From Flaccisagitta enflata (taxonomy: Eukaryota): a DNA stretch of 64,000 bases. Under the pieces are notes generated by a model. The model was not told where the DNA came from, made no database searches, and saw only the letters and a program-made list of their open reading frames with translations. A program made the position numbers and the translations under genes. The stretch spans positions 32,302,001 to 32,366,000 of the forward strand of contig OZ231126.1 in the NCBI GenBank assembly GCA_965153355.1. Reading direction: 5' to 3'. Below, piece after piece: positions 24,970 through 62,398 of the stretch (position 1 is its first letter; every line of letters starts with the position of its first letter).

Positions 24970-25163
<194 letters not shown>

Positions 25164-39281: not shown

Positions 39282-42137
39282 CTACACTTCCGGTTGGTTT
39301 TGGGCTCCTTTTTTCCACTTGTCGTAAGCTGCTTTGAACCCATTGACAGTTTTTTTTTCTCTCACGTCATCCGGTATTCCGTTCCATACATGGGCCGCGC
39401 GCACCATGAACGAGTTTTTTCTGATTTCCAGCCTGGCCTTCTTGATTTTTAGTACGTTTTTTCTCCTCGTTTCTCCCTCCTCGGTGATTTTGACATTCCG
39501 TCGCGTCGGCCTTTGCTCGTTGTTTTCAATGTCAAACCATTTCGCTTTATTGACATTGTTGAAACCATTCAAAGTCTTGAATGCTTCTATCGCATCCCCT
39601 CTTTCCCTTCTTTCCGTCAATGGTAGGAGGCCAACGTCCTTCAACTTTTCCTCGTAGGTTTTTCCCCTTGCGTCCGAGAGAAGTCGTATCATGCGTTGTT
39701 GCACTCTTTCAAGAGCATTTTTGTCCATCTCCATCCACGGATTCCACGCTGCCACCGCGAACTCGAGCTTTGGCCTAATGAATGTTTTGTAGATGGGGAC
39801 GAGATTGTTTTTTGTTCTATAATGGAAGGCCCTTTGCATTTGTCCCAGTGCAAAATTTGCCATTTTTGCTGCCACCGCGCATTGTTTGCTGGGCTTCATC
39901 GATGTGTCTACCCATACACCCAAGTCTTTTTCTTCCTCAGCCTCCGCGATCTTTATGCCGTTCATAACGTATTCGTATCTTGGGTTTTTCCTTCCTAAGT
40001 GTAAGATCTTACACTTTGCCGTGTTAAAGCTCATCGCCCATCTTTCAGCCCATTTGACTAGATTGTTAATGATTGTTTGCATCTTGTCCTTATCTTCCTC
40101 ATTCCGTATCTTGAGCGCGACTTTTGTGTCGTCTGCAAACATCCTTATTAACGCGTCAAGCACCTCTTTGCGGATGTCGTTTATGAAGATGTCGAAAAGT
40201 GTTCCACCCAACACTGATCCCTGCACGACACTGCTAAGGACTTCAATCCATTCCGAGTACTTCCCCTCAATCTGCACTCGCTGTTTTCTTCCTTGCAACC
40301 AATCCTTCAGCCATTCCTTCGCTTTCCCGACAATCCCCACGGCCTCCAATTTCACCATCAGTCTTTGGTGGCACACTCGGTCAAACGCCTTGGAGAAGTC
40401 AAGATATAATATATCGAATGACTCTCCCTCGTCCATCCATTTTGTCACTTCATCCATAAATTCGATGAGATTTGTTTGTGGCGACTTTTTTGCTCGAAAT
40501 CCGTGTTGTTCCTCACATAGCAGATTGTTTTTCTCAATGTGCTCCATAACTTGCTCTTTGACCACTCTCTCCATCATTTTCCCCACCACGTTTGTCAGAC
40601 TCACCGGTCTGTAATTGCCTGGGTCCGACTTCTTTCCTTTCAGTTTATAGATAGGAGTCACACTTGCCTCTCTCCAGTCGTCTGGGATTTTTCCTGAGTC
40701 AATTGATTTTTGGAAGAGGATTGTGAGTGGCGGTGTCAGTTCCTCTTTCAACTCTTTCAAAACTCGAGGCGTAATTCCGTCGGGTCCGCACACCGAATGT
40801 TCCTTCAGATTCTTTAGAATCCTTTTCACCGTCGTTTGGTCTATCTTGATTTCCGACAAATACTCCTCACCTCCATACTCCTCGGCTTGAGGAATATTTC
40901 CTCCGCTTAGCGTAAAGACCGATGCTAGATAGTTGTTTAGCACTTCCGCTTGTTCCCGCGGTTCCGTGATTTGTTCTCTGTCGCCGTCCTTTAGCGGTCC
41001 TATCTTTGTTCGCGTTTTTCGTGACCTATTAATAAAGGCGTAGTACATTTTTGAGTCTTCTTTTCTGCATTTTGCGACTTTTCTTTCATATGCATTTTTC
41101 TTATTTCTTATTTTCTTTTTTGTCTCCGTCACTTTCTTCTTATATTCATCCTTATCTCTTCTTGTTCCAGATTCCTTCCACGTTTTCCACGCCGCCTTCT
41201 TCTTCTCAATCGCCTTCCGTATCTCATGATCCATCCACGGAGGCTGCGTCGTTTCTCTTCTTGTCTTAAGTGGAATATGCTTTGCCATAAGATCCTTGAT
41301 ATATTTTTTTAAAGAAAGCCACATGCCATTCACATCGTGCCCTTCCCATTCACGCGACCAGTTAATTTCCGCGATCGATTCCCGCATTACTGCAAAGTTC
41401 GCCCTCCGGTAGTTGAAAGTCTGTCGTTTTTCGGTCTGCCGTTTCTCCCCGACATCAATTGTGAATGATATGAGGTCGTGGTCGCTCCTCCCGATCCTCC
41501 CTTCGGCCCTTACCTCTTTGATTAACTCTTCGCGATTACAGAGAACGAGATCCAGTATGTTACGGTTTTCGTGCGTCGATTCTTTTACATACTGCTCCAT
41601 GAATACCTCCATTGTTGCGTCAAAGAAATCCCTTCCTCGCAAACCCGATCTGCCGTTTTGCCACTCGATATCTGGAAAGTTGAAGTCTCCGATTGATATA
41701 TTCGTTCCATTCATTTCTCTCACCCACTTACACAGACTTTCATCGTTGGCCTTTTGAGAATTTGGCGACCTATACACGACATGGACAGAAACATCTTCAC
41801 ATCCCAGTCTCATTTTTATCGATGCGTATTGGTTAAAGTCGGTGTTACATTCCACCGCTGTCACATTCATTTTAATCTTCGCATAAATTATTATACCACC
41901 ACCTCTTCCCTTCTCTGTATCATTCCGATCATGTCTCGAAATTATTTCATAACCATCTACATGCAGAATTTCGCTTCCAATCCCGTCATGCGTCCATGTT
42001 TCCGTTATTGCCATTAAGTCCGGATCCGTTATTGCCATGATCGCCTTAAATTCATCCATCTTACTAACAATACTTTGTACATTTGCGAACGCCACTTTTA
42101 CACCGCTCTTCGCGTTTCCGCCCGCCATGCTAGCCAT
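39282..42137 (-). CDS. LINE ORF2: AP endonuclease + reverse transcriptase (CR1-type), 951 aa
   Basis: EN motifs ITETW, YRSPN, GDFNFP, LDLVL, SDHDLI; RT motifs NYRPVSLT, QHGF, LDFSKAFD, QGSVLG, FADDTK. Confidence 0.95.
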   Translation of the reverse strand: MASMAGGNAKSGVKVAFANVQSIVSKMDEFKAIMAITDPDLMAITETWTHDGIGSEILHVDGYEIISRHDRNDTEKGRGGGIIIYAKIKMNVTAVECNTDFNQYASIKMRLGCEDVSVHVVYRSPNSQKANDESLCKWVREMNGTNISIGDFNFPDIEWQNGRSGLRGRDFFDATMEVFMEQYVKESTHENRNILDLVLCNREELIKEVRAEGRIGRSDHDLISFTIDVGEKRQTEKRQTFNYRRANFAVMRESIAEINWSREWEGHDVNGMWLSLKKYIKDLMAKHIPLKTRRETTQPPWMDHEIRKAIEKKKAAWKTWKESGTRRDKDEYKKKVTETKKKIRNKKNAYERKVAKCRKEDSKMYYAFINRSRKTRTKIGPLKDGDREQITEPREQAEVLNNYLASVFTLSGGNIPQAEEYGGEEYLSEIKIDQTTVKRILKNLKEHSVCGPDGITPRVLKELKEELTPPLTILFQKSIDSGKIPDDWREASVTPIYKLKGKKSDPGNYRPVSLTNVVGKMMERVVKEQVMEHIEKNNLLCEEQHGFRAKKSPQTNLIEFMDEVTKWMDEGESFDILYLDFSKAFDRVCHQRLMVKLEAVGIVGKAKEWLKDWLQGRKQRVQIEGKYSEWIEVLSSVVQGSVLGGTLFDIFINDIRKEVLDALIRMFADDTKVALKIRNEEDKDKMQTIINNLVKWAERWAMSFNTAKCKILHLGRKNPRYEYVMNGIKIAEAEEEKDLGVWVDTSMKPSKQCAVAAKMANFALGQMQRAFHYRTKNNLVPIYKTFIRPKLEFAVAAWNPWMEMDKNALERVQQRMIRLLSDARGKTYEEKLKDVGLLPLTERRERGDAIEAFKTLNGFNNVNKAKWFDIENNEQRPTRRNVKITEEGETRRKNVLKIKKARLEIRKNSFMVRAAHVWNGIPDDVREKKTVNGFKAAYDKWKKGAQNQPEV

Positions 42138-43276
42138 CGCTCCCTTCCTCTCATCCCGGCCACCACATATCTTCCCCCTGTTCGCGTTCCGTTTTTTGCT
42201 TCCACCTCCGTCCGCTTCTTTGCTTCTTCTCTCATCTTATCTTCCTTTTTCTTAGCCTCGTCTCGTTCCTTATTTGTTAGATCGAGAGCAACAAACACGC
42301 TTTTCCAATCATGGTCTTTTCTCCCAAGGAATCGCGCCTTTTGCAAGAGTTTCTCCCGTGTCTCGTCGTCGCTCACTTTTACAACCAGCGGCCTTGGTTT
42401 TCCTCCGTCTTGCTTCTTCCCAGCCCTATACTTTGGCTCGACTTCTCCAACTATTTCAACCTCTATTGCTTCGGCCAAATCCCTTACAAACCTCTCGTCC
42501 TCCACGACCCTTTCTGCTGCGCTTTCTTTCTCTGACTCCTTCGCTCCATAGATGACAATGTTACAAGCTTTCTCCTCCCTCGTCCTCATCTCCACCGTCA
42601 GTTCTTCCTTGAATTCTTTCTTCGCCTACTCCATCCCAGTTTCAATTTCTTTTTCCATAACGACTATTTGCTCTTTTACCTGGTCTGTGCCATTCTTCAT
42701 CCTTTCGAGTTCGGCCTTGACTTGCTGCAGCTCGAGTTCTGCGGTGTTAGCACGTGCTTCCGCGGCGTTGGCTCTCTGTTCCGCGTCACTGATTTGTCCT
42801 TCGATTCTCTCCATTCTCTCGTTCATTCCCTGGTCCGAATTAGTCTCCAGTTTGGCGACCTTCTCAATGAGGACCTTGTTTTCCATGATGACCGTCCTCA
42901 GTTGTATCTTCACGTCCTTCATTTCGTCTTTGAACTGGGTTTTTGTTTCCTTCCCTTCGTCTTTTACCGCCTTGATCAAGTCGGCTTGCTGGGTGAAGGT
43001 CGTGTTTGAGAAGTCGATGAACCTTCGGCAAATCAGGCAGAAAAACGGAGATATACCGTGAATTTTTGTCATAGTCCCGCAGTTTTCCGCGAACTCGGGC
43101 GTCATTCCATCTACGCAGGCCGTGTGGTAGTGGAAGCCACACGCTCCACCACACGGAAGACTGCTGCCGTTTCCGCTAACACATTCCTGAGCACACTTGC
43201 CATACGGATTCTTCGTCGTTTGCTTCCGCAGTCGAGTGCTGCCGCTGCTCTTGTCGTCCTGCATTGTTAGGCTCAT
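42098..43276 (-). pseudogene. LINE ORF1 (PHD finger, coiled coil, RRM-like), ~392 codons, interrupted by in-frame TAG at 42626-42628
   Basis: The 216-aa and 165-aa ORFs are in the same frame; PHD-like C..CGGAC..HYHTAC..CLIC; NIVIYG..RPLVVK..DLT motifs typical of CR1/L2 ORF1. Confidence 0.85.
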
Positions 43277-43333
43277 CGGGAGAGTGATGTTGTTGGCTCA
43301 GTGTCGCCTTTTTTACCGCGGAGTCGTTTTACG

Positions 43334-43620
43334 CAGCGTCTCGTCACAGCGCAGCGTCTCGTCACAGCGCGGCGTCTCGTCACAGCGCGGCGTCTTGTCA
43401 CAGCGCGGCGTCTCGTCACAGCGCGGCGTCTCGTGACAGCGCGGCGTCTCGTGACAGCGCGGCGTCTCGTGACAGCGCAGCGTCTCGTCACAGCGCGGCG
43501 TCTCGTCACAGCGCGGCGTCTCGTCACAGCGCGGCGTCTCGTCACAGCGCGGCGTCTGGTCACAGCGCGGAGTCACGTCACAGCGCGGAGTCACGTCACA
43601 GCGCGGAGTCTCGTCACAGT
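43334..43620. repeat. 18-bp tandem array in the LINE 5' UTR (~16 units)
   Basis: (GTCACAGCGCGGCGTCTC)n. Confidence 0.95.
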
Positions 43621-45067
43621 GCACTCGTCTTGAGTTTTTTTTCTTTTTTGATTATTCGAAAAGCACACTCGTCTCGAGTTCGAGTTTGAGTTTAGATCAT
43701 AAGTGCAGGGGAAGCAGTTTTCATAATCGGATTGAGTTTGTAATCCTTTGTCTGGCTCAAGATCGCTTGACCAAGGCGACCTCCAGCCGTTTTCGACGAT
43801 AACCGGGAACGCCTGGAGCCTGCCTTAATCAAGCAAATAAAAGAATTTTAGCTTTTAGCTGAAAGATATTTTGTTAGAGATAAAGAGATCTTAGGACTAT
43901 GTTCATCAATACTGCTTTTTGGCTGCTCATGAATAGCAAAATTTCATTCAGTGAATAAAAAATCCAGTGATTGAGTGAACATTCCATGGGCACATATGAA
44001 AGAGATTTTTTTGCCATAAATGGATTAGACTTGACACTAGCTTCATAATTCTTAAACCATAAATGAATCTTATCTGGCTGTTCATGAAGTACCAAATTTT
44101 ACCTTTTGATGAACAGTTTTGATCATAGAGTTATGTTACAGTGAAAACTGAAGATAATACACATTGGGTATGAAGACAAAATTATTGGTGGAGTGGATAT
44201 TTTAGCTGCTCATGAACGCGCTTTTTATGGCCCTCTCTGAACAAAATTGTTGGGCAAATGTCTCTTTCATGATGTTCATCAACACCTGTATGGCATTGTT
44301 GCTGAACAGGCGTTCATTCCCCGTTGCTGAACGCACCCAAATTCGCTGGCGGACTACCTGGACGAGGAAAGGGAGAAAAACTGTAGAATCATAATGGTAT
44401 TTTGGTATGCTAAGCAGCCTGATATCTACGTATACTAGTATCTTTTATCCTCTTTTTTTCCTCCTGTAAAAGATCGATGGGGAAAAAAGGGGTGGAGAAA
44501 TGAAAAAGAGAGTGTTAAGTAGGAGGAGTTAAGGAAAAGAGTCACGGAGCAAAGACGATTACAGAGGGAGCTCCGAGATTGAAACAAGGCCGGATACAAC
44601 AGACTTGAGACTGGACTTGAGAAATTATGCGAAAACCTACTACGATAGCCATATCATTCAAAGATAGCTATGATGCGATAGCCATACCGTAAAAGATCTG
44701 TGTTCCGATTAGTGAGATTCAAAAGACTAATCACTACTGGACAGCGAACACGAATCAAGACGTATGCGACTAGAAGAACAACAAGGCTAGTTAACAGTTA
44801 GTGCAAGAAAAAAAGAAGCTCGTCCATGGCAAAAAAAAATATGAACGGATAGATGGATGGATGGACAAGTATACGGGTAGAAAAGCGGACAAATTGCAGA
44901 TAGACCCGCGTTAACTCTCATGAAAAAAGTCGTAAAACGATTTTCTAGAATAGACAGGTGAAAGACAAAGCAAAACAGGTGAAAGAACAAGAAATTATGC
45001 ATGCAGATCAAGGAAGAGATAGAAGGAATAAAAGAACCAAAACAATTTGAAAAGGTGGAAAAGACAG

Positions 45068-48897: not shown

Positions 48898-50946
48898 CAG
48901 GTTTTCCTGCCTTTCTCCTGACATTTCGTGCTGCTATTTTTGGAACTTGTTTTGTCCTTTTGTCTCAAGGCTCGTTACTATCTTTGTCTCTCTACTCGTT
49001 ATTTCATACGTCGCTTTCTCTGTCTCAAGGCTCGAGAATAACTTTGTCTCTCTCCTCGTTACTTCATATGTCGCTTTCTCTGTCTCAAGCCTTGTCACTA
49101 TTTAGCTTTTCAGTCTTGGGCAGTGGCTCTAAGTCCAAAGGGCCGGTTTCATGTGTTTTTAGGGGGTTTGGGTGGAATTCTCTTATATCTGTAAGACTGT
49201 GTGTGCTTCTCCATTTCTTTATCAATCCATACATCCCCCATTTTAGGATCCTTAAGCCTGTATTTTAGGGCTTTCGACTTTTAGCCTCAAGAGTTGAAAT
49301 TTGGACTGAGTTTGAGATTTTGAGCCGAAATGTCCCAAATGTCTTGAATGTGGGATGTCAGTCTCGAGATAACATAAATATTTGCTCTACACAATGAAGC
49401 TTATTTTACTAAGGGCACGGACACCGCTCGGCTGGCCGGTTCCATTATTGTTTTTTTTTTACTTCTTTTCCTTCTTTTGCCCCGCGGCCAGAAGATGTCG
49501 CTGCTGCGACGTTGCAGCCATTTCTCTTTAGTTGATTTTACGGCCATTTGTCGTAAAAAAAAAGACGTTATCTAAAATCAAAAGAAAGAACCAATCAACT
49601 GAAATGACAAAATGACCAAAAAAGGTAAATTATGACCCCAAGGCATTTAGGTATAAGGAAAACAACAGAAAATACTGGAAATCAGTAGATATTCGAATGA
49701 AAATCCATACTGCCCACATTGGGAAAAAAGATCTCTTTAAAAACTGCATACTTATTTGACTACAGGTCGTCAAATGACACACATTCTTGAACAAAATACG
49801 TGGAAATTGCACCAGATCCTGGAAAACGATTGAGGGTGGCAAATAGCAATTCTCGAATGTGGGGCAATGTGAAAGTGTCAAACGTACCGATGGTAGAAGG
49901 AGGTGGTGATGGAGAAGAATAAGAAGGAGGAGGAGTAGGAGGAGGAGGAGGTGGAAGAGGCAAACGAGGAAGAAGATGTCAAACCTGCTGATGGATTTTC
50001 CGCTAAATAATAAAGTCTGTTGTTGCTCAATGGTTCAAAGTTATTCTAAGTCATTCTAAGATGAATGAAGTCAATTAGGTAAGTCAATCAGGCCAATTTA
50101 GTCAATTATGTCATTTTACATCATTTTTAAGTTATCTTTAGTCATCTTGATTCATTTGGAATCAATTTAAGTCACTTATGTCCCCCACGCGACTCATAGG
50201 TGTTGGCCATGTTAATTCTTGAATTTAGATGTTAGTATATACAAGAAAACATTCGTACAAAATGATGTTTTGACAATATCCTTAGTACTACAGATTATAG
50301 TGAGTCACTACCCCGCGTACCAATAAAAAAGACGCACTTTTGAATGGCTTATTGTAGCACCAAATTCAATAAAACCTAATGAAATTCTAGAACATTGGAA
50401 AGCCCTTTGAAAATACTTTCAGATGTTTTCTACCTTTTTTAGTCGCGTGCACGCGACTCTACAATGCGCTTTGTCTGCCCATCTGACCGACCGTTGGTCT
50501 GTTGGTCCTTCGGTCAAACTTTACTTTCTTCATTACTTTTAGTTATCTAAGTGTTTAGGTCAAAACAGTGTTGAAGTCATTCTTAGTCATTATAATTTAT
50601 TTTAATCATTTTATGTTTATCAGGAAAAAAAGTCCGAGTCAGACTTTTGACATGTTGGAAGAACAGGGTTTTCATTTTCTTTATCACCGAAAGTTTAGGG
50701 CTCTCCTAGGGGCGAATGGGCCCTCCAATGAAATTGATAGCGTAAGTAAATTTGATAATTCTCTTTTATTTGGCGCCAAGCAGAATGCTCTACGACAAAT
50801 ACTTTTTGCGCTATGATTTTTTAAAGATTTATTTACGAAAAATTCAAATGGAATTTTTTTAGATTTTTTTCGATTTTGTGTTTGATCAATGAAGGAGTGT
50901 ATTTATGTTTACTTGAGCATGCAAATACAAGAAAATATGTTTATGA

Positions 50947-51311
50947 AGTATGACATTGAAGTCATACGGACTGAAAGAAAGACGAAATTTCTTTGGAATT
51001 TCTTGGTTTACTCTTTAATTTTATCATTCATATAAAATTAACAATAAAATATATAAAACAACAACAAATAAAGGGCATTCTGTACGCTTAATGTTCTCTT
51101 ACCTGAAAGAAAGACGAAATTTCTTTGGAATTTCTTGGTTTACTGAAATTCCAAAGAAATTTTCGTTTATATATCACCCGCATTAGAAATCTGTAAAGTT
51201 TGTGGTGTAATACGTCAATTGCTAAATTAAATAGGGGTCCCTCATATTCTTATAAAGGACATTCTAATATTAGGGTGTTTCAAGTGGGTATAAGGAGTCC
51301 TATTCCATACT
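50947..51311 (-). repeat. 3' LTR
   Basis: AGTATG...CATACT termini; 3 mismatches vs the 5' LTR by eye. Confidence 0.95.
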
Positions 51312-51319
51312 TCCCCCCT
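51312..51319 (-). other. Polypurine tract
   Basis: Minus strand AGGGGGGA immediately before the 3' LTR. Confidence 0.75.
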
Positions 51320-51601
51320 GTTGACCAAAAAAAACCATTAGTGTGAACTAGGTTTTTTTTTCCTTTTTCAAATTCCCGGAATTTTAAAACAAAGTCGATC
51401 TCCTTTTACCCACCTAAAAATGAAAAACCTCAGAAATGCGGGCGTTTGCGTAACAATAACAATCGTTGAACGAACGGAAAATAACGGTCACGTTTTAACT
51501 TTATAAGTCACGACTTATAGGTTTGGATAGTAACTAAGACAGAAAAGGAGAATTCTAAATATCCAAATTATCAATCAACAACCCTTCCAACCAAAAGAAA
51601 C

Positions 51602-51608
51602 TATAAAA
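51602..51608 (+). promoter_or_regulatory. TATA box of antisense accessory gene 1
   Basis: TATAAAA ~80 nt upstream of GCCATC-ATG (51681). Confidence 0.55.
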
Positions 51609-51680
51609 GACTCGGCGTTTGTTAGGTTACCAAAATTCTTTTCTAATCATTTCTCCGCTTGATTACTGCGACAAGCCATC

Positions 51681-51841
51681 ATGAACGAATATCTCTTTCT
51701 CGCGTTGGCATCTCTTCTCTTCACCATGGGAATGGCTTCTGAATCAAATGAGCAAACCCTTGAGGATTACGTTAAAGATCCAGTTCCCTCGAATAAGTGT
51801 TTTCAAAAATTTGAGGGCTATTTGGAAAGCGTGGGCTACAG
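51681..51841 (+). CDS. Accessory gene 1, exon 1: signal peptide + start of ectodomain
   Basis: MNEYLFLALASLLFTMGMASESNEQ...SVGY; consensus donor AG|GTAAGT at 51842. Confidence 0.75.
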
Positions 51842-52007
51842 GTAAGTGGGGGGGGGAGAAAATTTTGAACACAAGATTAATGCAAAAGTTAGTTTAAGTT
51901 ATTATTACCTTCCTCGCCATGGTAACATATTAATTAGTTCAGGCTTGCATTAAAATCAAATACTTCTATTTCTAAAGGTTAACATGCCTGTCAATCATTG
52001 ATTTTAG

Positions 52008-52320
52008 GAAAGATGGGGATGCTTGTCAATTGATTGTTTATCGCACGGCTACTGGAAGAACCACTACTTCTCGATGTTTACCAGTATCAGAGAAGTATCT
52101 CAAAACTGAGTATAAAAAAAAAGTATTACAGAATACTGACGATGTCGAATATCTTCAATTTGGCACCATTGCCCTGGTGTTGCTCGATATTATTCTCACC
52201 ATATTCAAAATTTTTCAACAAAAGTTACAAACAACGCAAATCCTAGCAAATCAAGGCAATGCTCCCAATACTCCAACACCACTAAGACGAAACAGTCAGT
52301 ATGCCATACAAAACGTGTAA
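52008..52320 (+). CDS. Accessory gene 1, exon 2: rest of ectodomain, TM helix, cytoplasmic tail (spliced protein 157 aa, type I membrane protein)
   Basis: Acceptor ATTTTAG| at 52007, phase-compatible (AG|G = Arg), joins the 52030-52320 frame; TM FGTIALVLLDIILTIF. Confidence 0.75.
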
Positions 52321-53370
52321 ATCAGCATGCTCAGTCATTCGACAGTCGGGAAAAAAGGTAAAGTTCATACAGAGTAGTGAAACAATGGGAAATTAAGCAT
52401 GAGAGAAAAGGATAGAAATCAATAATTTGAAATTTGATTTCACACCGACCCCTTTTTCCATTTCCTTGATCAAAGTCCAAAGCTGGCAGCTGATTTAGCC
52501 AAATTTACTTCATTGGTCACTCATTTTATTCTAACTCCTGCCGTTTTCAATTCGTTTTTATTCTCAAGATTTTCCATTTGGGAACTAAATCATCAATCGA
52601 AAAAAAAAATATAACCATCATCGACTTCATGTCGTAAAAAAAAATATAGGAATTCCATAAAAAAAAAATACGACTACAGTACTGTCTGCGCATTTTCAAT
52701 CACTCCCAAATACCATCTGGTAAGGGCTTAGTGAAAATCCTTTATCCTTCAGACTAAAGAATTGATAATCTGGCACGTCCCTAGATAGCGCCGGGGGCAT
52801 ACTATCCTAAATAATACCGGTTTTTCAAGGGCTCACATTCACTGTCGAGACCTTACTTTAATTCGCCCCCCTGGGGTTAGCAAATTCTTTTTCTTTTCTT
52901 CTCTTTTTTCTTTTCCGTAATTTCTTTAGCCACTTATTTCCATGACTCTAAAATTAGACGCCCTCTCTGATCAACTTCGAGCTGATTGTCATTTGTTTCT
53001 TTGATTCATTTACTACCGCTCATTCACTCCCCCGTTCATACATCGTTCACTATTCATCAATCAGCTGTCAACATTCGTTCGTTTACCTGGCCAGGTTCAT
53101 TCATCACATTCATTCATCGTTCACATTTCACATTCATTGATCATCAGAGCGTCTCTAATATTAAACACTGATTGTTCTATATTCTCATTTTACAGGCTCG
53201 TATTTCTGTCTCAAAAGAAGCGGCTTTATATTACATCTTCTTTTTATTCATTTTCTTTTACTTCATTTCTTTTCTTTCTTTTAACAGCGAACGGCGGTTT
53301 CTTCTTTCTTTTTACATTTAGAGGGAATTTAATTTAAATTTGTTTCAAAAGTCATTATTCAAAATTCAAA

Positions 53371-53802
53371 ATGGCAAACTTTTCCCTTTACACGGGAAGC
53401 TCGGTTGATGATTACTTCTACGAAGAATCATCAACCACGCTTCCCAGTCCAACGGTTGCGTCCGTCCAACCGGACTCTGAGGCGGTGACATGGGGCTCGG
53501 TCGGAGGGGTCATCGGTGCCCTGATGTTGGTCTCAGGGGTCCTCGTAGCCCTCAGGCGCAAACTGGCAGCGGTGGACCGTTTCTTGGCCACCCTGCAGTC
53601 TGTCCCCAGGGCTGCGTTGGAACTTCTGAGGCCCCATCAGGCCCAAGACGCCTCCACCAGCCCCATGGCCACGCCAGCTGCCAGTGGCGTTCCGTTTAGG
53701 AACGCCACCGACAGTGCCAGAGCCCGAGTCCAAAATATTGAGATGCGAGGACTCGCCCCCCGCCATTGCGATGAGAATAATGCCCGTTCGCTGTGGGTTT
53801 AA
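53371..53802 (+). CDS. Accessory gene 2: 143-aa single-pass membrane protein (type III-like; FAST-like architecture)
   Basis: CAAA-ATG-G start, GC-rich ORF in AT-rich flanks, NFS sequon, Ser/Thr-rich N-terminus, Gly-rich TM, RRK, amphipathic helix; AATAAA at 53915. Confidence 0.75.
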   Translation: MANFSLYTGSSVDDYFYEESSTTLPSPTVASVQPDSEAVTWGSVGGVIGALMLVSGVLVALRRKLAAVDRFLATLQSVPRAALELLRPHQAQDASTSPMATPAASGVPFRNATDSARARVQNIEMRGLAPRHCDENNARSLWV

Positions 53803-53914
53803 ATTTTTCCCCACTTAAGATTTTCTTCCCCACTTTCCCCTTAAAGGGTTTTTAATTCAAAATTTTTCTAATTATTTCATTCTTTCATTTCTTGATTTTA
53901 TCCAAAATTTTGCT

Positions 53915-53920
53915 AATAAA
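53915..53920 (+). terminator. Polyadenylation signal for the antisense cassette
   Basis: AATAAA followed by an A-rich tract that ends 7 nt before the pol stop codon. Confidence 0.55.
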
Positions 53921-53948
53921 AAAAATACAAAAAAAAAAAAATACTGTC

Positions 53949-56900
53949 TCAAATCCATTCCAACGCATCGAGGCCGATTCCACCGTAGTGGCTCTTCGTC
54001 GTCAGCCCCGCATTTAGGACGAAATTGGCGTCAATCGACGGCGATAATTGGGCACCACGCGCCCTTCTTCTTGTCATTGGTGGCGAATTCGAGGCCTCGT
54101 TCTTTGTGGCCATTTCTTCCATGCGTTCACACAATCTTAGTAAGTCCTCCTTCGTTTGGTTTCTGGTGATTAGTAGCAAATCACCCGGCAGAATACAGAT
54201 ATCATCTGTCAAGATACTTTTGCATCTAAAAGTATTGGTACCGACGCGGTCCATGACCTCAAAGGCATTTTTTTGTAATTTGAATGCCAACTTTTTTTGA
54301 ATGCCTTTTGCGAACGAAGTCCTTTTTAGTAAGCAAAGATCTCCACTTTTAAGCCTACGGCCATAATCAGTTGGCGAACTGTGATCTTTTTTCTTTAGAA
54401 ACGACTGTACGTTGTAAAGAAGAGACTCTTCCGCCGCCCTTTTCGCCAAAGAAATGGTCTCCTTTGCGGATTTGCTTCCTTTTCCATCTTCCTTTGACGC
54501 AATGTTCATCAACGGCGCCTTTAAGGTAGGTGAAAAGTGTAATTCCCGAGGCGAAATCGCCCCTTCTTCCGTCATAGGGCCTAGCCCACTATGCACCGAG
54601 TTATTGTAACAAATGATTGATTCATTTACCAACTTTGAGAATGGCGTTTTTGGATTAGACGAGTGATACTTCATTATTAAACGACTAATAGTTGATATTA
54701 GTCTTTCAGCCTTTGTTTGGCACCTGCTAATGTTTGCCATTCCATGGGTAATAGTCACACCACTATCCATTAAAAACTTCCTGGTAGCACTGTGCTTTGA
54801 TAATAATGCGTTATCACATACTATAGATTTAGGCAATCCATTCCACGCCTTTCTCATTTCCATCACGCCTTCTAGTACATAGTCATCATTAGTACCATTG
54901 GTTGGCGTACCAAAAGCGTAACGGCTGAAACTGTCACAAAATATTAAGACATATTTTGGCAAGCCTGACGCTGTTTTAAACATTGTATATGGCCCCGCAA
55001 AGTCCATAACTACCAATTCTCCGCTTTGACATGCAATTTGTTCTCCATCATCCTCTTTTCTTGCTCTGTTTGTTATGTGGTTATTCAAAGCGCAACTTGC
55101 GCACCGTGAGATGTATGTGTTCACCTTGAATCTCAGCCTGAACGCGTACCACTTTTTTGCGATTGCCGTAAATGTCTTTCTTTGACCGATGTGTGACAGA
55201 CCAGATGGGCAGTTCACATCAAACTCGTGGGTTTTAGCAATCAGTCTGTCCATTTGTGAATCACCAACCACCAAAAGAGGATCGATTGAACCGTTTCTAT
55301 GTGCCCATAGGCGAAATAAGATACCCTGCTCATTCAGCCTAAAGCATAGCTTATGTCGTAAGAATGTCTGTATATCCTTAAGCAGGCTCAAAGCATTAAT
55401 TTTTCGGGGAATCTCCTCCTCGCCCCTCAAATACTGAGCACACTTCCTAATTGTTTCATCTTCCTGCATTTCCTTTGCCTTTTCCAGATTGTCATCGTCA
55501 TACACGGGCAGGGTCACGTCTCTAAAGATGTCCTCCACTTTTTCGTCATCCGCATCATTCCACCCTTCTCCTATCTCCTCATCTGTCAATCCGAACGAAC
55601 AGATGTTCATCCTCCCAAGCTCCTTCTTTTCCTCCTCCTCTTCCTCCTTGACACTTCGACGGCGAGTTTCCTTCGACGCGACGTCGTCGTCGACGTCGTC
55701 GTCGCCCTCAATGACGTCACCATCGTCCTCAACGACGCTTTCATGCAAGTCGGTGACGAATCCCTCATCACTGACGTCATCAATTTCATCACCTGCTCTC
55801 AAGGAATCCATCACTCTATCATAGGTGAATTCTCTTACACACTCACGTGTTGTTTTTGTCGATTTGTCTTTGTCTGTCTCCACCTCCATTGTCCCTTCTA
55901 TTTGGCTGTCAACCGCGTCCTTGCGGGAATCATAGTCGTCATGAATTGGCTTTTCTTTTTTCTCGACCGAAACTGCCTTCGCTAATTTCTGCTTTCTATT
56001 CCGAACGAAGAAATCTTCCATTCTTTTGCTTTTTGGTGCTGTGAAGAGTTTTTTCCAACTTATTGGATTTCCATCTCCATTTATCAAACGGCCTTCCATG
56101 AACCTTGGATAGGTCCCTACCGGTGATAACTTATTTCCTTGAGGGTCAAATGTCCTTTCCTGCCTGCTAAAGATATCTGCCATGTTCAATTTCCCATCCA
56201 CATGAATGACCTTGAAATCAAACCGTTGCAAAGAAAGGATTTTTCTTGCCAAATCCATTGGCACTCTATCAATACTTGCCCAATCTCTGCAAGTCTCGCT
56301 GTCACTTACAACAAAAAATTGCCTGCCAGAAAGTAGGAAAAAATACTTATGCGTCATTTGCCAAAGGGCGACCAGTTCCTTCAACCAAATTGGGTAACAA
56401 CGCCAATTTTCGGGTATGCATGAGCTCCATACTCCCACCAAATGCAATTCCTTTCTTCCCTGCTCTCCTGATTGCTTGTGCTTCAGTGGCAACATCATCT
56501 GTGTCAGTATCCCACTCAGGCTGCTAGATGAGGCGTCACAAAAACAAAAGATTGTGTCCTCCACATCAGCACTAGGTGTCCTTAATACACAGCATTCTGG
56601 GTCTAATAAATGCTCCTTTATGTCCTGCAATGCCTTATGATGAATCGCTGACGGCCTGAAACGAACACCCGGTTTGTTTAGCTCTCTCAGAGGTGCTGCC
56701 AATTCTGACAGTCTGACTGCCATTCTGTCAAACCAGACAAAAAATGCAAGCATTGCATTTAATTTAGCTTTTGTTTCTGGGAAAGCCAATTTCTTGATTT
56801 TATCAATCTTTTCTGATGACAATGACAGCCTCTCCTCTCCCACTAAGTGACCTAGAATTCTGGCCTCATCTCTGAAGAAAATACATTTCTTTGGGTTCAT

Positions 56901-59894
56901 CAGCAGATTGTAGTAACTTGTTGTGGCCAAAAAGTCAGGCAAATCCTTTTCTATATGTTCTTCCTTGGTCATTGAACAGCATGAAACATCATCCTGAAAA
57001 GGATATGATCTAGGGCAATTTTCATAGCATTTTGATGAGGTAAATTGCCCCAAGTTGGCCGATTGTACATTTCCCATCAATAATCTGAGAGACTTGTAAA
57101 CTTTGCCTAAAGCATAGATACCAAATAGCTGTTGTGTCTGCTCGTCTGTCTTGACCTGATGAAAAAATTCTACGAAGTCAAAGTTTGAGAATACTTTATA
57201 TTGTGACAGCTCTCTTCTGAATGCCTCACAATTTGGCAAAGGGAATGAACTCTTTTTCAGTGATTTGTTGAGAGATTTTTGGTCTACTACCATTCGACTT
57301 TTGTACCTAATTTTGTTCTCACCACTATACCATCTTTCTTCCAAAATGATAAAAGCATTGGATGCATAGATAGAAGCTGATTCTCTGGAATTATCCACCT
57401 CTTTAATAACACCCATGTTGATAAGGTCTTCAATATGCTTTTTCAAATACTTTCTCTTACTGTCTGGACATCTTCTCTGCTTATCCTTGACTGGCACCAC
57501 TCCTGGTTGAACCTCAATATGCACCAATGGGATATTCTGAATGCCAGCTCTGAACTGATCTTTCCTGTCAACATTGTAAAAAATATCCTTGAAACATACT
57601 AAAAGCTCCTTCAACTTGCTCAAATATGGCTCCTCTACTCCTGAAAAATCAAAATTTGCCAGAAATATTTCATCTGATGGCCAAAATTCTGATTTTGCTC
57701 TTTTGTCCTTTTCAAGGTCAAAGTTTGCTTTGACACCCAGCAGATGGAGATTAGGACTTTGTCGCTTCGCCTCTAAATCACAGTAAATTCCTGTGTCCTG
57801 ACACCTTCTCAACAGATCATTACTAAGTCTGCCTTTGTTCACTATATCAGAGAGAAGAACGGGGCCTGTGACGTCATGCAGACCGTTCCGTTTTTCGCCT
57901 GGCTGCTGCCCGCAGCTGCTTTTCATTCCAGCCTCTGCTGCTGCTTCGCTGGGTTTGTGTGACGCTGCCGCTTCTCCAACCACAACCTCCTCCACACGTA
58001 CATCGTCTCGCCCTACGCCGTCTCTACAGACAGCTGACAACTCTCTTCTGTCTGTCCGTCCACTTTTGACTCCGTCCGTCACTCCGCATATCAATCCTAT
58101 CATTTCTTTTTCTAGCCTTTCGCGTTTTTCTTTCTCAGCGCCTTGAGTCCATTTTCGTTCTCTCCTTACTATTTTGTCCTCTGAGGCCTTCTGTCTCCGT
58201 TCCAAATTCGTCTCACCCTCTGTCCGAGTTTTTTTTCTCTCATCATATGATTCTCCGATGGACGTAATATCACTCGCCTCTCTTTCGCGCTTGCTGCCTT
58301 TTGTGTCTGCTTCTACTCTGTCCTTCCTTATTTTGTCCGCACCTTCAAGTGAGCCTTCTATCACATTTTTGCGAGGCTGAATATCAAGCACTTCACACAC
58401 TATTCTCTTTGTGTAACTTTCATCTGTTTTGTTCCTTTTATCATTAGCGATGACATTGACGATGCCGTTGTCACTATCACTGATGACATTGCCGATTTTG
58501 ATGTTACTATTTGCGATGACATTGATGTGTTTGTCGACTAACTTGTCATTGTTGTCAGTGTTGTTTTTGATGATTGTTCTTTTGTTGTCAGTGTTGTTCT
58601 CGACTATTTTGCTCTTGGACCCAGTGTTGTTTTTGACGATTGTTTTTTTGTTGTTTGTGTTGATATTCTCGTATTCATTTTTTTCCTTTACTGTCGCGCG
58701 TTCAACTGTTTGATTTTTGCTTTTTTCATTCATTCCTTTCATCACCACATCTATTTTGCAGACATCAACTTGAAACATCTTCAAGCTACGCGTCTCTTGT
58801 TCGTCTTTGGTGATACCGTGCTTCACAATCTCACCTATCCTCCAACCTGCCTTAATCGTCATTTCCTCGCCGGTAAGATTAGTGACTGGAATCATGAAAT
58901 TTACAGTACCACTCTCATACGTGACCGAGGGTATGTAGACTGAATGTATCTCTTCATCATAGAACGAAAGAAATGAAAATTTACTGTCAGTCCTAAAATT
59001 TGGCTCTATTTTGCACTCGACCATCGTGATTGATGTTGGATCAAGAGTGACAGTCCGTCTGTTTGACATCCAGTAATTTCTCTCAACTTTTGGCCAATTC
59101 CTCTCCATTAAACTACGACTTTCCCACTCCTTCTTTCTTTCCTCCAGGCTATCAACTGCTTCATTCAACGACCTCGACGTCAAAATCCTTTCATCTTTGA
59201 TATACATCAATTCATCCCTCGTGCTCAAGTTGAGGCCCAGGCTCCTATCGCGAAGCAGGTCAGAACCTATAATTGATGTTTCCACATCGCACACATAGAA
59301 TGAACACCTCACACTTTGTGGGTAAAAATGTAGTGTAACATCCACCATATCTGTCACCTCCGCCCCTACTTGGCCTGTAAAACCTAGTAGTTGTACTCCT
59401 GGACCCTTCCTTTTTCTGATGTTTTTTACCAAAGCTGAGGCTATGACACTACACTCTGCTCCAGTGTCAATGAAGAATTCGCCTTTGACCGCGCCATCTT
59501 GACCATTATCACTCCCATCCTCACTCTCTTTGTCCCATGGTGATACCATACATGCCACATAGAATTTACTTCCTTTCATAAAACCCGTTGAACATCCATT
59601 TTCTTCCTCTTCTTCCTCAAATTCCTTTTTATTCACGTTAGCACAATGCAATGACTGTCTGTCACCTTCTCTGTCACTTTCACTGTCATTTTCACTGTCA
59701 CTTTCACTGTCACCTTCTCTGTCACCTTCTCTGCCACTCCTATCGTCACCTTCTTTTTCTTGCCCATTTAAAACATGTCCCACTGAATCTATGTTCAACT
59801 CATATTCATTCGGAGATTTTGATATTGAAAGACATTGTAATTTATCACCGATACTTTTCTCATCCTCTTTATGTGATAATGGTTGCTGTAATTG
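53949..59894 (-). CDS. pol: pol: aspartic protease, dUTPase-like region, RT, RNase H, integrase (open from the gag stop)
   Basis: FIDTGAECSVI..IIGSDLL; RT RMVVDQKSLN, FQDD (56988-56999), ILGH; RH CDAS..KELVAL..SDS; IN H..H..CxxC, MDFAGP, CDN, KAER. Confidence 0.95.
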   Translation of the reverse strand, partial: QLQQPLSHKEDEKSIGDKLQCLSISKSPNEYELNIDSVGHVLNGQEKEGDDRSGREGDREGDSESDSENDSESDREGDRQSLHCANVNKKEFEEEEEENGCSTGFMKGSKFYVACMVSPWDKESEDGSDNGQDGAVKGEFFIDTGAECSVIASALVKNIRKRKGPGVQLLGFTGQVGAEVTDMVDVTLHFYPQSVRCSFYVCDVETSIIGSDLLRDRSLGLNLSTRDELMYIKDERILTSRSLNEAVDSLEERKKEWESRSLMERNWPKVERNYWMSNRRTVTLDPTSITMVECKIEPNFRTDSKFSFLSFYDEEIHSVYIPSVTYESGTVNFMIPVTNLTGEEMTIKAGWRIGEIVKHGITKDEQETRSLKMFQVDVCKIDVVMKGMNEKSKNQTVERATVKEKNEYENINTNNKKTIVKNNTGSKSKIVENNTDNKRTIIKNNTDNNDKLVDKHINVIANSNIKIGNVISDSDNGIVNVIANDKRNKTDESYTKRIVCEVLDIQPRKNVIEGSLEGADKIRKDRVEADTKGSKREREASDITSIGESYDERKKTRTEGETNLERRQKASEDKIVRRERKWTQGAEKEKRERLEKEMIGLICGVTDGVKSGRTDRRELSAVCRDGVGRDDVRVEEVVVGEAAASHKPSEAAAEAGMKSSCGQQPGEKRNGLHDVTGPVLLSDIVNKGRLSNDLLRRCQDTGIYCDLEAKRQSPNLHLLGVKANFDLEKDKRAKSEFWPSDEIFLANFDFSGVEEPYLSKLKELLVCFKDIFYNVDRKDQFRAGIQNIPLVHIEVQPGVVPVKDKQRRCPDSKRKYLKKHIEDLINMGVIKEVDNSRESASIYASNAFIILEERWYSGENKIRYKSRMVVDQKSLNKSLKKSSFPLPNCEAFRRELSQYKVFSNFDFVEFFHQVKTDEQTQQLFGIYALGKVYKSLRLLMGNVQSANLGQFTSSKCYENCPRSYPFQDDVSCCSMTKEEHIEKDLPDFLATTSYYNLLMNPKKCIFFRDEARILGHLVGEERLSLSSEKIDKIKKLAFPETKAKLNAMLAFFVWFDRMAVRLSELAAPLRELNKPGVRFRPSAIHHKALQDIKEHLLDPECCVLRTPSADVEDTIFCFCDASSSSLSGILTQMMLPLKHKQSGEQGRKELHLVGVWSSCIPENWRCYPIWLKELVALWQMTHKYFFLLSGRQFFVVSDSETCRDWASIDRVPMDLARKILSLQRFDFKVIHVDGKLNMADIFSRQERTFDPQGNKLSPVGTYPRFMEGRLINGDGNPISWKKLFTAPKSKRMEDFFVRNRKQKLAKAVSVEKKEKPIHDDYDSRKDAVDSQIEGTMEVETDKDKSTKTTRECVREFTYDRVMDSLRAGDEIDDVSDEGFVTDLHESVVEDDGDVIEGDDDVDDDVASKETRRRSVKEEEEEEKKELGRMNICSFGLTDEEIGEGWNDADDEKVEDIFRDVTLPVYDDDNLEKAKEMQEDETIRKCAQYLRGEEEIPRKINALSLLKDIQTFLRHKLCFRLNEQGILFRLWAHRNGSIDPLLVVGDSQMDRLIAKTHEFDVNCPSGLSHIGQRKTFTAIAKKWYAFRLRFKVNTYISRCASCALNNHITNRARKEDDGEQIACQSGELVVMDFAGPYTMFKTASGLPKYVLIFCDSFSRYAFGTPTNGTNDDYVLEGVMEMRKAWNGLPKSIVCDNALLSKHSATRKFLMDSGVTITHGMANISRCQTKAERLISTISRLIMKYHSSNPKTPFSKLVNESIICYNNSVHSGLGPMTEEGAISPRELHFSPTLKAPLMNIASKEDGKGSKSAKETISLAKRAAEESLLYNVQSFLKKKDHSSPTDYGRRLKSGDLCLLKRTSFAKGIQKKLAFKLQKNAFEVMDRVGTNTFRCKSILTDDICILPGDLLLITRNQTKEDLLRLCERMEEMATKNEASNSPPMTRRRARGAQLSPSIDANFVLNAGLTTKSHYGGIGLDALEWI

Positions 59895-62180
59895 TCATGC
59901 CTGCAATCTGTCTTTGTCTCCGTTTCTGTCAGCGTCTCTGGCCAAGATGATGGCCTCAGATTTATCTTTTGGTCTGTCCTCACACTCTATGGCGATATGA
60001 CATTCTTTCCTCAAATCCACGCCACAACACGGACAAAATGACCGACAAAATTCATATGATCCATTCCATACATGTGTCTTACTTAAACAAGCGGCGCATC
60101 CAGATAATTGCATCTTTTTCATCTTCATGGCCAGGAGGATTCCTTCCGGCGTCATCCCCGATTCTGACGCTGACGAGATCGATGCTCCAATTTCGTTGAC
60201 GTGCGCCTTCCATGATGATTGCGTCCCTCTCGCCTGCGCGCTCGACGCTCCCGACGACGCGTTGGCGCCTCCACGTGCGCCACTTCCGGCGTAACTACCT
60301 CGTGGTAAACTCTGACTCCTAGGCGGCGCATACTTGCTCCAGTTTCCTCCTCCGCCGTTTCCATTCGACCATCCTCTACCGGCGCCACTATTTGACCATC
60401 CTCTACCGGCGCCGCTCGACCATCCTCTACCTGCGGCGCCGCTCGTCCATCCTCTTCCGGCTGGTGCGCTTCCTCCTCGTGGCGCCGGTGCTCCTCTCGT
60501 TTGCGTATTGTGGCCCCTTCCTCTATGTGAAGCTGACGAACTTTGCTGAGAACCTGTGTTGGTTAAAGCCGAAACGTTGCGTTGATGGTTATTTTTGTTA
60601 TCCTTGCCCTCCAAGAATGCTTTATCGAGGCTTATCTGAGCCTCTATGTGTTGAGCGTGATTGGCAAGCCGTCTCAATGTTCTTTGCCCATCCTGATATT
60701 GTGCGTTTGACACTGTGTGTGCTAATGTTCTATTGTATAATCCTGCCAAAAATGGTTGGATGTAGTCGTTCTCTTGTCTGCCAATGATGAATATCAAATC
60801 AACATAATCTGTGAAATACTCTGAAACCGACTCATTGCTTTGTTGTTTACGGTTGTGAAGTCTCCCCAACGCAATCGAGTCTAAATTAGGATAGAGTTGA
60901 TGCTCAAATTCCTTAATGAATGCCATAAAGCTAGAAAACGTTGCCTCGCGCTTGAAGATAGGCTGAAACGTTTTATAGAAGACATGAGCTTTCAAGGCGA
61001 ATATCCCCAAATGAGTGAACATAGGGCAAGCGCCAAAATAGCAAGACAACTGATCAACTAGCTTACGTCTTTGTTCCAAGTACAATAATGCATCCATATT
61101 TTCCTTAAAATCAACATTCACAATTTTCGCCGCCCTCACTACACTATCAGCGTCAGCTTCACCACCACATAGAGTTCCTCCTCTAGGAAACATGAGAACT
61201 ACCCCTGGTTTTTCAAACAACCCTGGATATTGCGGCGTTGAGGGTGGGTTGGGAGATGGGGTGGAAATTGTGTGTGTATTGGCTTGTACATCGTACACCG
61301 ACCTATTCGATGACGCTGGTCTCAAAATTCCATTTACTATCCTTTGACCGGATGCTACTCTTGTCTGACCTGATGTTCCAGTCGTTTGACCTGATGTTCC
61401 AGTCGTTTGACCTGATGCCTCAGCGCCTTGCTTGGACGAATTGGACGAATGAGTCAAGACGGGTGAGAAAGAGAAATGTACTTTCTTCGTTGCTCCAACG
61501 CCGCCTATTGCTCCTGCCTCCGTCGCTCCCGCGTCGTCGTTATCTGCCGGGAACAATCTGTTGCCATCTGCAACGATACTTGCATTATCAATGGGCCATG
61601 TTGTGCGATCCCCGGTGTGGTCCCACCCATCATCATCATCCTCACCATCACCATCATCATCATCTTCATTCTCACTCGAAGACTTTGATTCTGTGTTAAG
61701 TGATACCAATAAGTCGTCTACATCTTTGAAAATCCTTTTCATCTCATTCTCATTCCCGCCTGTAATAAATGCTAGATAGGCGTCATTCAAATTGCGCATC
61801 AGGTGTAACATGACTTGTTTAGTTGCCTGAAGACTTCTAATCCTTTCTTGATTTGACTCGATGGTCTGGGCCTGTCTCTCTACTGTATTTTGTAGCGCAT
61901 CAATCGCTTCTGATTGTTTGCCTTCAGTATCTGCAGACCGTATACATCGTACTAGGTTATTCCTCTGTTGTAATAACTCACGAGTGAACTGATCAACTGG
62001 CATTTTCGTTTTTGATTTACATCCTTTTATCGACCCACCTTTGTGCTGTGATGGAGGCCTCCAGCATTTCGGACACCAAATGGTGGCTGAGACACCAGGT
62101 CTCAGTTGTGATATTCGAGCTGACAAGTCTGCTATCTCTTGAAGAAGCTCATTTGTAGTTACCTCCTCTGGGGTTGACAT
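59895..62180 (-). CDS. gag: gag, 761 aa
   Basis: N-terminal CX2CX6HX7C and coiled coil; capsid MHR-like KQQSNESVSEY; RG-rich GRGWS repeats; C-terminal Cys/His zinc motifs; located after the PBS. Confidence 0.9.
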   Translation of the reverse strand: MSTPEEVTTNELLQEIADLSARISQLRPGVSATIWCPKCWRPPSQHKGGSIKGCKSKTKMPVDQFTRELLQQRNNLVRCIRSADTEGKQSEAIDALQNTVERQAQTIESNQERIRSLQATKQVMLHLMRNLNDAYLAFITGGNENEMKRIFKDVDDLLVSLNTESKSSSENEDDDDGDGEDDDDGWDHTGDRTTWPIDNASIVADGNRLFPADNDDAGATEAGAIGGVGATKKVHFSFSPVLTHSSNSSKQGAEASGQTTGTSGQTTGTSGQTRVASGQRIVNGILRPASSNRSVYDVQANTHTISTPSPNPPSTPQYPGLFEKPGVVLMFPRGGTLCGGEADADSVVRAAKIVNVDFKENMDALLYLEQRRKLVDQLSCYFGACPMFTHLGIFALKAHVFYKTFQPIFKREATFSSFMAFIKEFEHQLYPNLDSIALGRLHNRKQQSNESVSEYFTDYVDLIFIIGRQENDYIQPFLAGLYNRTLAHTVSNAQYQDGQRTLRRLANHAQHIEAQISLDKAFLEGKDNKNNHQRNVSALTNTGSQQSSSASHRGRGHNTQTRGAPAPRGGSAPAGRGWTSGAAGRGWSSGAGRGWSNSGAGRGWSNGNGGGGNWSKYAPPRSQSLPRGSYAGSGARGGANASSGASSAQARGTQSSWKAHVNEIGASISSASESGMTPEGILLAMKMKKMQLSGCAACLSKTHVWNGSYEFCRSFCPCCGVDLRKECHIAIECEDRPKDKSEAIILARDADRNGDKDRLQA

Positions 62181-62398
62181 CTTGGAAAAAAGTCGAAGAT
62201 CCTACCTCGGCTTTTACACGGACGGCGAGAGCCGCCGTTAATGTTTCTGTCTGATCGAAACGAAGATCGATACCGCCTCGCGATGATCGATGAACTTTGG
62301 GAGAGACCCGCGTTGAATCCCTTTTCTTAGAAACGCCGCCGGGGCTCCTGCCCAACTGACCGAATAGCCACTTGTGGCGCGCAGATTTTACTAGACCA

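Follow-up and report, generated by a model that had tools for sequence, protein, structure and literature searches.

Can a long terminal repeat (LTR) retrotransposon, which multiplies through an RNA copy of its genome, carry a gene that contains an intron? The question is raised by a stretch of 64,000 nucleotides from Flaccisagitta enflata (assembly GCA_965153355.1, contig OZ231126.1, positions 32,302,001 to 32,366,000 of the forward strand), hereafter called the window, whose minus strand bears an LTR retrotransposon of about 11.8 kb. On the opposite strand, a first, sequence-only reading of this DNA had proposed a hidden two-exon gene for a membrane protein of 157 amino acids (aa), here called gene B. 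Our analysis shows that gene B is a real and conserved protein-coding gene and that a second antisense gene, which we call gene A, lies close to it. As a whole, we consider it probable that gene B belongs to a Ty3/gypsy-type element as a true accessory gene, transcribed antisense to gag and pol under the control of a TATA box, spliced, and accompanied by gene A.

Gene B is located in the 2.6-kb stretch that separates the pol stop codon (53949) from the 3′ LTR, on the strand opposite to gag-pol, and its position inside a retroelement is thus confirmed. The TATAAAA, the ATG, the donor, the acceptor and the in-frame junction of the sequence-only reading were all found where it had placed them (Table 1). 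The ATG (51681-51683) has an A at -3, and there is no other ATG between the expected transcription start and 51681. The donor CAG/GTAAGT (the slash marks the splice site) opens an intron that begins at 51842, and the acceptor TTTTAG/ closes it at 52007. Each of the three frames of this intron contains three to six stop codons, its guanine-plus-cytosine (GC) content of 32.5% is the lowest in the locus, compared with 42% and 38% in the two exons, and a TTAAC located 26 nucleotides (nt) before the acceptor is a possible branch site. Once joined in frame, the exons give 474 nt, corresponding to 157 aa and a stop codon. The features attributed to this product, namely a signal-peptide-like N-terminus, three cysteines, one membrane span and a tail, are present: hydropathy and charge counts, from which the topology is predicted, reveal a hydrophobic N-terminus (residues 5-19) and a single span around residues 105-125 (Kyte-Doolittle values up to 2.26), with cysteines at positions 40, 60 and 77 and a tail of 32 aa after the span. 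The product is predicted to be a type I membrane protein, in which a signal peptide would be cleaved off and an ectodomain of about 85 aa, carrying the three cysteines, would be followed by the span and a short cytoplasmic tail. The list of stop-to-stop open reading frames (ORFs) does contain exon 2 only (51976-52320, 114 aa), as had been pointed out.

The length of this ORF is in itself no more than chance would produce, since shuffling the 2.6-kb region 2000 times gave an ORF of 114 codons or more in 251 cases. The evidence for a protein comes from conservation. A search with the exon 2 ORF in a collection of 5.8 billion proteins recovered three clusters of seven proteins each, i.e. 21 relatives, all from marine assemblies, 20 of which were aligned (alignment A1, P0002 being left out). 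Fourteen of the relatives form a first lineage, 88-99% identical to the window; one member (P0012) has a frame change, and two others (P0005, P0007) diverge in the sequence ahead of exon 2. The second lineage comprises seven proteins that are 57-63% identical to the window, all of them intact (112-114 aa). They retain both cysteines of exon 2, the membrane span with its aspartate (LLDIIL or ILDIIL) and the tail sequence RRNSQYAIQ, and their stop codon lies two codons past this sequence, at the same place as in the window. A profile built from the exon 2 alignment matched 10 proteins at E≤0.001, six of them at ≤1e-10, among 1.84 billion representatives. These matches and the members of their clusters belong to five or more remote lineages with 22-47% identity and share the same plan: DG..C, a short beta-like stretch, a second cysteine with LP after it, a helix-like segment of acidic and basic character, a span that includes a polar residue, and finally a tail, which ends in RRNS in most of these lineages. 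Conservation at the protein level reaches down to 22-61% identity and includes the cysteines, the span, the tail motif and the position of the stop codon. On this evidence, gene B is a real gene on the strand opposite to gag-pol, conserved and protein-coding. Scans of metagenome, viral and genome contigs did not reveal any relative of exon 2 or of gene A at the DNA level.

The element that hosts gene B is an intact, young LTR retrotransposon of the Ty3/gypsy (Metaviridae) type. Its LTRs are direct repeats that differ at 3 of 365 positions (51210, 51270 and 51301). They are flanked by a short target-site duplication, ATGA, and adjoin a primer-binding site and a polypurine tract. No tRNA gene matching the primer-binding site was found within the 64-kb window. 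The pol product carries protease, reverse transcriptase (RT), RNase H and integrase in this order, with Pfam matches to RVP (residues 139-221), RVT_1 (865-1016), RT_RNaseH (1110-1225), Integrase_H2C2 (1566-1606) and rve (1625-1717), several of which score under the curated cut-off of Pfam, and the closest solved structure is that of the yeast Ty3 Gag-Pol (7q5b, E 7e-24). The similarity of the LTRs, the duplication, the two priming sites, the order of the pol domains and the relationship to Ty3 together establish this element as an intact and recently inserted member of the Ty3/gypsy type. In other copies of the repeat that flanks it, contigs pass directly from the left flank to the sequence of the right flank (with loose ends at 50946) and look like an empty insertion site.

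The same slot contains gene A, which had not been noticed in the sequence-only reading. Located about 1 kb downstream of gene B on the same strand, it is unspliced and encodes a single-pass protein with a layout of its own: an acidic N-terminus of 40 residues without lysine or arginine and without a signal peptide, a glycine-rich span at about residues 41-61 (WGSVGGV..G), immediately followed by RRK, and a tail with the invariant motifs TSPM and NATDS. By the positive-inside rule, the N-terminus would face the outside. A BLASTP search among 291 candidates detected 21 proteins at E≤0.01, which are 50-99% identical to gene A. The relatives are 134-144 aa long, except for a partial one of 108 aa, and the alignment (A2), from which the partial P0029 was left out, holds 20 of them with 45-99% identity to the window and 25 invariant columns. 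This conservation leads us to regard gene A as the second conserved antisense gene of the element. Genes A and B are unrelated in sequence (hhalign probability 0.1%), and we rejected the idea that they are paralogues. We also considered a fusion of gene A to exon 1 by alternative splicing and rejected it, the candidate acceptors at 53288 and 53321 both leading to stops within 12 codons. A weak, compositional Pfam match to TM_ErbB1 was obtained in 4 of the 21 gene A relatives (best E 0.0026).

The composition of gene A raises the question of its origin, its GC content being 59% compared with 35% in its surroundings. An A-rich run (53918-53941) follows the AATAAA downstream of the gene and ends 8 nt before the pol stop codon. 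This GC island, the AATAAA and the A-rich run could possibly be the trace of an acquisition as a processed copy. A retrocopy mediated by a long interspersed nuclear element (LINE), with duplication of its target, is unsupported, since no duplication was found flanking gene A and its flanks contain A-rich low-complexity repeats only.

Both genes could in principle be passengers, that is, host membrane-protein genes captured by the element, or retrocopies or fragments of such genes, without any role in it; the conservation seen in metagenomes would then be that of host genes. The retrocopy-like appearance of gene A fits this view, and capture of cellular sequence is among the origins proposed for the antisense ORFs of plant elements (PMC7264820, PMC11963269). 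The source contigs of the relatives, including the remote ones, are only 0.5-3.2 kb long, and the relatives on them may or may not sit in retroelements, which counts against an accessory role as well. However, the two ORFs are intact in a copy with almost identical LTRs, a frame change affects a single one of the 14 exon 2 relatives of the first lineage, and gene B is not a processed retrocopy, given that it keeps its intron. Moreover, the presence of two unrelated single-pass membrane-protein genes in the slot of env is hard to explain as random cargo. We therefore judge the capture of passengers unlikely, and retain the reading of gene B, with gene A, as an accessory gene of the element.

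The second part of our question concerns the intron. From the splice signals, the frame and the boundaries of conservation, we infer that gene B is spliced at 51841/52008, and if the gene is real, the two-exon structure as proposed is highly probable. On the acceptor side, exon 2 lacks a methionine and an in-frame TAA lies 11 codons before the acceptor, so that exon 2 cannot be translated by itself from an AUG, and its conserved N-terminal part must depend on an exon further upstream. The similarity between the first and second lineages starts precisely at the arginine codon that spans the acceptor (AG/G), while the five preceding residues are unrelated. Among the 11 sequences of the two lineages that cover the site, all but P0005 have this arginine directly before the conserved block, and it is also found in P0049/P0057 and P0052. 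In the lineage of P0055, P0054 and P0056, a threonine takes its place, and the upstream sequence, hydrophilic and protein-like, ends in ...GY, like exon 1. A Leu-Thr pair common to both lineages just upstream of the acceptor corresponds to TTAAC in the window, and these shared codons may reflect the branch site and not a coding sequence. The diverging upstream sequences of P0005 and P0007 match neither of their two possible counterparts in the window, intron or exon 1, and are uninformative.

On the donor side, a search with the exon 1 ORF detected three proteins, 94, 94 and 81% identical to it, and all three retain ...GYR followed by GTA. In two of them, a tyrosine codon (GTAY) replaces the in-frame TAA of the window; the GT has therefore been kept and the stop has not. 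The variant with 81% identity shows a frame shift immediately after the donor, and 9 of its 10 replacements fall within residues 1-26, a part that covers the signal peptide and the very start of the mature protein. The perfect 9-mer donor MAG/GTRAGT occurs once on the plus strand of the 64-kb window, at the site where the intron begins (51842), for 0.91 expected per strand. The conservation of the splice sites, which had been suggested as a check, can thus be followed at the protein level at both ends of the intron, with greater depth at the acceptor than at the donor. A variant copy present in metagenome contigs has 7 of 40 listed differences inside the 166-nt intron (binomial p=1.6e-4), three of them adjacent and possibly due to one event, and only two in the exons, both at synonymous third positions; the 40 are a subset of the 167 differences of this copy, on which the contrast between exons and intron depends and which lessens its weight.

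A different gene model would also account for part of these data. Exon 2 could be real and be joined to another upstream exon, or be spliced at the second in-frame AG (51976-51977), which follows a good pyrimidine run and would add 10 residues, exon 1 being then a separate small ORF or a 5′ leader. The seven proteins of the second lineage speak against this upstream AG, since a start-type codon NTG stands at the AGG position of the window in all of them; the upstream AG is thus not kept in this lineage, while the arginine at the downstream site is. Support for another upstream exon could be sought in the remote homologue P0055, which extends 31 residues further upstream than the conserved block and shows no signal peptide there, and whose N-terminus does not resemble exon 1 significantly (518 of 5000 shuffles score as high), as well as in the fact that no junction was observed. 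Nevertheless, the conservation of exon 1 ends exactly at a consensus donor, and exon 1, with its signal peptide, and exon 2, with its membrane span, together make a coherent protein. These points render the different model very unlikely compared with the two-exon gene. As for the idea that there is no gene at all, but only chance ORFs and splice-like signals, of a length that shuffled sequence can indeed yield, or a non-coding antisense RNA such as a source of double-stranded RNA directed against the element (a regulatory role of antisense transcription itself being discussed for plant elements; PMC7264820), its probability is close to negligible, because a non-coding RNA does not explain the conservation of a protein down to its cysteines, span, tail motif and stop codon.

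Several observations nonetheless weigh against the two-exon gene. The joint 51841/52008 is absent from the contigs of the four runs that were searched (two RNA-library runs of one study and two DNA runs), RNA-library contigs bridge both the donor (51664-51986) and the acceptor (51960-52112) in unspliced form, and none of the 24 related proteins of the two exons is a joined product of exon 1 and exon 2. The pyrimidine tract before the acceptor is modest, and an alternative AG with a good one is available in frame. The exon 1 relatives are all at least 81% identical to the window, so that the conservation of the donor is shallow, and the bases at the splice sites of all relatives are deduced from protein sequences only. 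In addition, the signal-peptide-like N-terminus lacks a basic residue, neither AATAAA nor ATTAAA occurs within 800 nt after the stop codon of gene B, and no known family was found for the proteins of genes A and B in Pfam (E≤0.01), PDB sequences or the ESM Atlas, Rfam being uninformative.

The unspliced RNA-library contigs should be regarded as neutral. They are of low depth and carry no strand information, and DNA was possibly present in the libraries. Further contigs of these libraries cover 51368-51662, ahead of the TATA box, and 51047-51241, in the U3 part of the LTR. As both regions would be absent from an mRNA starting at 51630, the unspliced contigs may correspond to sense genomic RNA, or to DNA. 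The RNA-library contigs lie on 51047-53262, and none lies on 53331-56500 (pol and gene A). This lack of cover is no evidence in itself; if anything, it suggests that the covered part is the 3′ end of a sense RNA. The search for junction reads, proposed in the sequence-only reading as a test, therefore leaves its claim of a spliced gene where the coding exons and their boundaries put it: these coincide with the proposed donor and acceptor, and the junction itself was not seen.

How could an intron persist in such an element? Transcription of gene B would most likely start at an internal TATA promoter of its own and not depend on the LTR, and a single splice would then yield the 157-aa membrane protein with its signal peptide. 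In the genomic RNA of the element, the intron would be present as its reverse complement, hence invisible to the spliceosome, and would be inherited by each new copy. Because it is antisense to the genomic RNA, the intron is expected to survive replication. The DNA contigs fit this argument, which had already been put forward: contigs of two DNA runs cross parts of the intron, every crossing contig retains it, and no intron-less joint occurs among them. In the DNA run of organism A, gene B, gene A and pol have comparable contig depths, which are not copy numbers. The comparison originally drawn with retrotransposition indicator cassettes holds for the principle, in a converse form. In these engineered constructs, the intron is placed for removal from the element's own RNA and is lost (PMC3035435), whereas the intron of gene B faces the other way and is kept.

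Genes A and B sit in the slot where related elements carry env, and it is tempting to suggest that they act for the element at the membranes of the host, in the release of particles, in passage from cell to cell or in the modulation of a membrane partner of the host. This proposal is tentative, and we would put its chances somewhat below even. The polar or acidic residue in the span of gene B and the glycine-zipper-like span of gene A suggest an association between helices. A bolder scenario is that the two proteins would form, in an element devoid of env, a minimal membrane machine resembling the fusion-associated small transmembrane (FAST) proteins or viroporins, which would pass capsids or genomes between cells, for example from soma to germ line; their expression would not depend on the LTR promoter, and the antisense orientation would let the intron and a host-like regulation persist. 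We consider this scenario decidedly improbable.

Table 1. Positions, within the window, of the two antisense genes and of the parts of the retrotransposon that carries them.
Feature	Positions	Strand	Remarks
TATAAAA, candidate promoter	51602-51608	plus	73 nt upstream of the ATG; sequence only
Gene B exon 1, coding part (53 codons + 2 nt)	51681-51841	plus	signal-peptide-like N-terminus, Cys40
Proposed intron, 166 nt (GTAAGT...TTTTAG)	51842-52007	plus	signals and frame
Gene B exon 2	52008-52320	plus	Cys60, Cys77, membrane span with conserved Asp, 32-aa tail with RRNS, TAA stop
Gene A, 143 aa, unspliced, single-pass	53371-53802	plus	ORF and conservation
AATAAA	53915-53920	plus	sole plus-strand copy from 3′ LTR to pol; 113 nt past the stop of gene A
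Target-site duplication ATGA	50943-50946 (left copy), 62775-62778 (right copy)		read from the sequence flanking both LTRs
3′ LTR, 365 nt	50947-51311	minus	direct repeat of 62410-62774
Polypurine tract AGGGGGGA (minus strand)	51312-51319	minus	adjoins 3′ LTR; read directly
pol reading frame, 1981 codons	53949-59894	minus	protease, RT, RNase H, integrase in order
gag reading frame	59895-62201	minus	ends in TGA, same frame as pol
Primer-binding site TGGAGGCACGGTGGTC (minus strand), begins TGG	62394-62409	minus	adjoins 5′ LTR; from the letters alone
5′ LTR	62410-62774	minus	direct repeat of 50947-51311

Some other traits of the element and of its surroundings deserve mention. A single TGA separates gag and pol, which are in frame (59886-59897, minus strand), and is followed by CAA TTA. 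The context stop-CAR-YYA promotes read-through in plant viruses, and by this analogy the pol product of the element may be made by read-through of the stop codon and not by frameshifting. The pol frame is unusually long for a Ty3/gypsy element: about 640 residues separate the protease from the RT (region 56900-59500, minus strand), and about 340 separate RNase H from integrase. Imperfect 33-nt tandem repeats (58448-58662) encode an Asn/Thr/Asp/Lys-rich stretch between protease and RT. The insertion target is a very highly repeated short sequence (50900-50946, 62775-62800), with a summed contig depth of about 460,000 in the DNA run of organism A, compared with 2,000-5,000 inside the element; a related repeat unit is also present at 25922-26005, 50130-50213 and 63357-63440. 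Elsewhere in the window, a 984-codon ORF (39282-42236, minus strand) and an upstream ORF of 223 codons (region 39282-43297) have the look of a LINE, with endonuclease and RT parts as judged by eye. The window also contains very long microsatellite and minisatellite arrays with units of 3, 4, 8, 12, 18, 20 and 21 nt, several of which are common to distant places; they are found, among others, at 8600-8800, 14400-14800, 23800-25250 and 43278-43690. The LINE-like ORF and this wealth of microsatellites are what one would expect of an animal host. Sequencing runs in which the stretch is present are marine metagenomes and DNA runs of a single organism (organism A).

Among plant Ty3/gypsy elements, antisense ORFs in the interval from pol to the 3′ LTR are a well-documented feature, as in Grande of maize (gene 23), RIRE2 of rice and Retand of Silene and other plants (PMC7264820, PMC11963269). 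These ORFs occupy the same slot as genes A and B, in the same orientation, and are likewise conserved among copies. An own promoter has been reported for the antisense gene of Grande, and the roles of the plant ORFs are described as unresolved (PMC7264820, PMC11963269). Their products are nuclear or predicted to bind DNA, the TRP28 domain (PF04195) being present in 97% of Retand clusters (PMC7264820, PMC11963269), whereas both products described here are predicted single-pass membrane proteins, in which neither PF04195 nor any other known DNA-binding domain was detected with Pfam at E≤0.01. The element of F. enflata further differs from the plant elements by its animal host and by its two antisense genes, one of which would contain an intron. 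The word ‘intron’ is missing from the text of PMC7264820 and PMC11963269, in which a search for spliced antisense transcripts is urged by the review. The general antisense-ORF (aORF-3R) arrangement can be recognized in our case, with genes antisense to gag-pol, located in the slot between pol and the 3′ LTR, and conserved in relatives known from short contigs.

Antisense genes also exist in the retroviruses HTLV-1, HTLV-2, HTLV-3 and STLV (PMC11963269). The HBZ gene of HTLV-1 is similar to gene B in that it codes for a protein, is antisense to gag-pol-env and occupies the 3′ end of an LTR retroelement. Its main mRNA is spliced, the gene has its start within the 3′ LTR, and the product is a nuclear factor with a basic leucine zipper (bZIP). 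By comparison, the candidate TATA box of gene B lies 290 nt inside the internal region, and its product is a predicted membrane protein without a bZIP match in Pfam and with no sequence relationship to HBZ. Judged by these features, gene B would not be a gene of the HBZ type. Introns in an antisense transcript have been described for TART, a telomeric element of Drosophila, in which several introns are removed from the antisense transcripts and persist through replication (PMC1636488). TART differs from the present case as a non-LTR element, and no conserved antisense protein is claimed in the abstract of that study (PMC1636488).

The env genes of errantiviruses and retroviruses resemble genes A and B by their position after pol and by their membrane-anchored products. 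However, they are in sense orientation, encode several hundred residues and have both a cleavage site and a fusion peptide; no such trait was seen in this element. No minus-strand ORF of more than 93 codons exists between pol and the 3′ LTR, and the one of 93 codons overlaps gene A; the slot thus does not hold an env gene. The layout of gene A, in which a short N-terminus predicted to face the outside and lacking a signal peptide is followed by a glycine-rich span, a basic cluster and a tail, is reminiscent of the reovirus FAST proteins and of viroporins, and Vpu of the human immunodeficiency virus HIV-1 can be named as well, a likeness that concerns layout alone. A keyword search of the open-access literature did not find any animal LTR retrotransposon with conserved antisense membrane-protein genes, which is not a proof of their absence.

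Since antisense accessory ORFs were already known, what appears to be new here is an animal Ty3/gypsy element with two antisense genes for predicted membrane proteins, one of them in two exons. Reports of antisense accessory genes in LTR retrotransposons have so far come almost exclusively from plants. Among retroviruses, the antisense gene HBZ plays a central part in persistence. The present case also carries a warning for annotation, because masking of retroelements on the basis of their ORFs hides genes of this kind. If our reading is correct, the slot between pol and the 3′ LTR hosts antisense genes well outside plants, and gene B would illustrate in nature the rule that an intron outlasts retrotransposition only if it is antisense. 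Genes A and B would then provide two small and easily expressed proteins with which to ask which membrane functions a retrotransposon without env needs.

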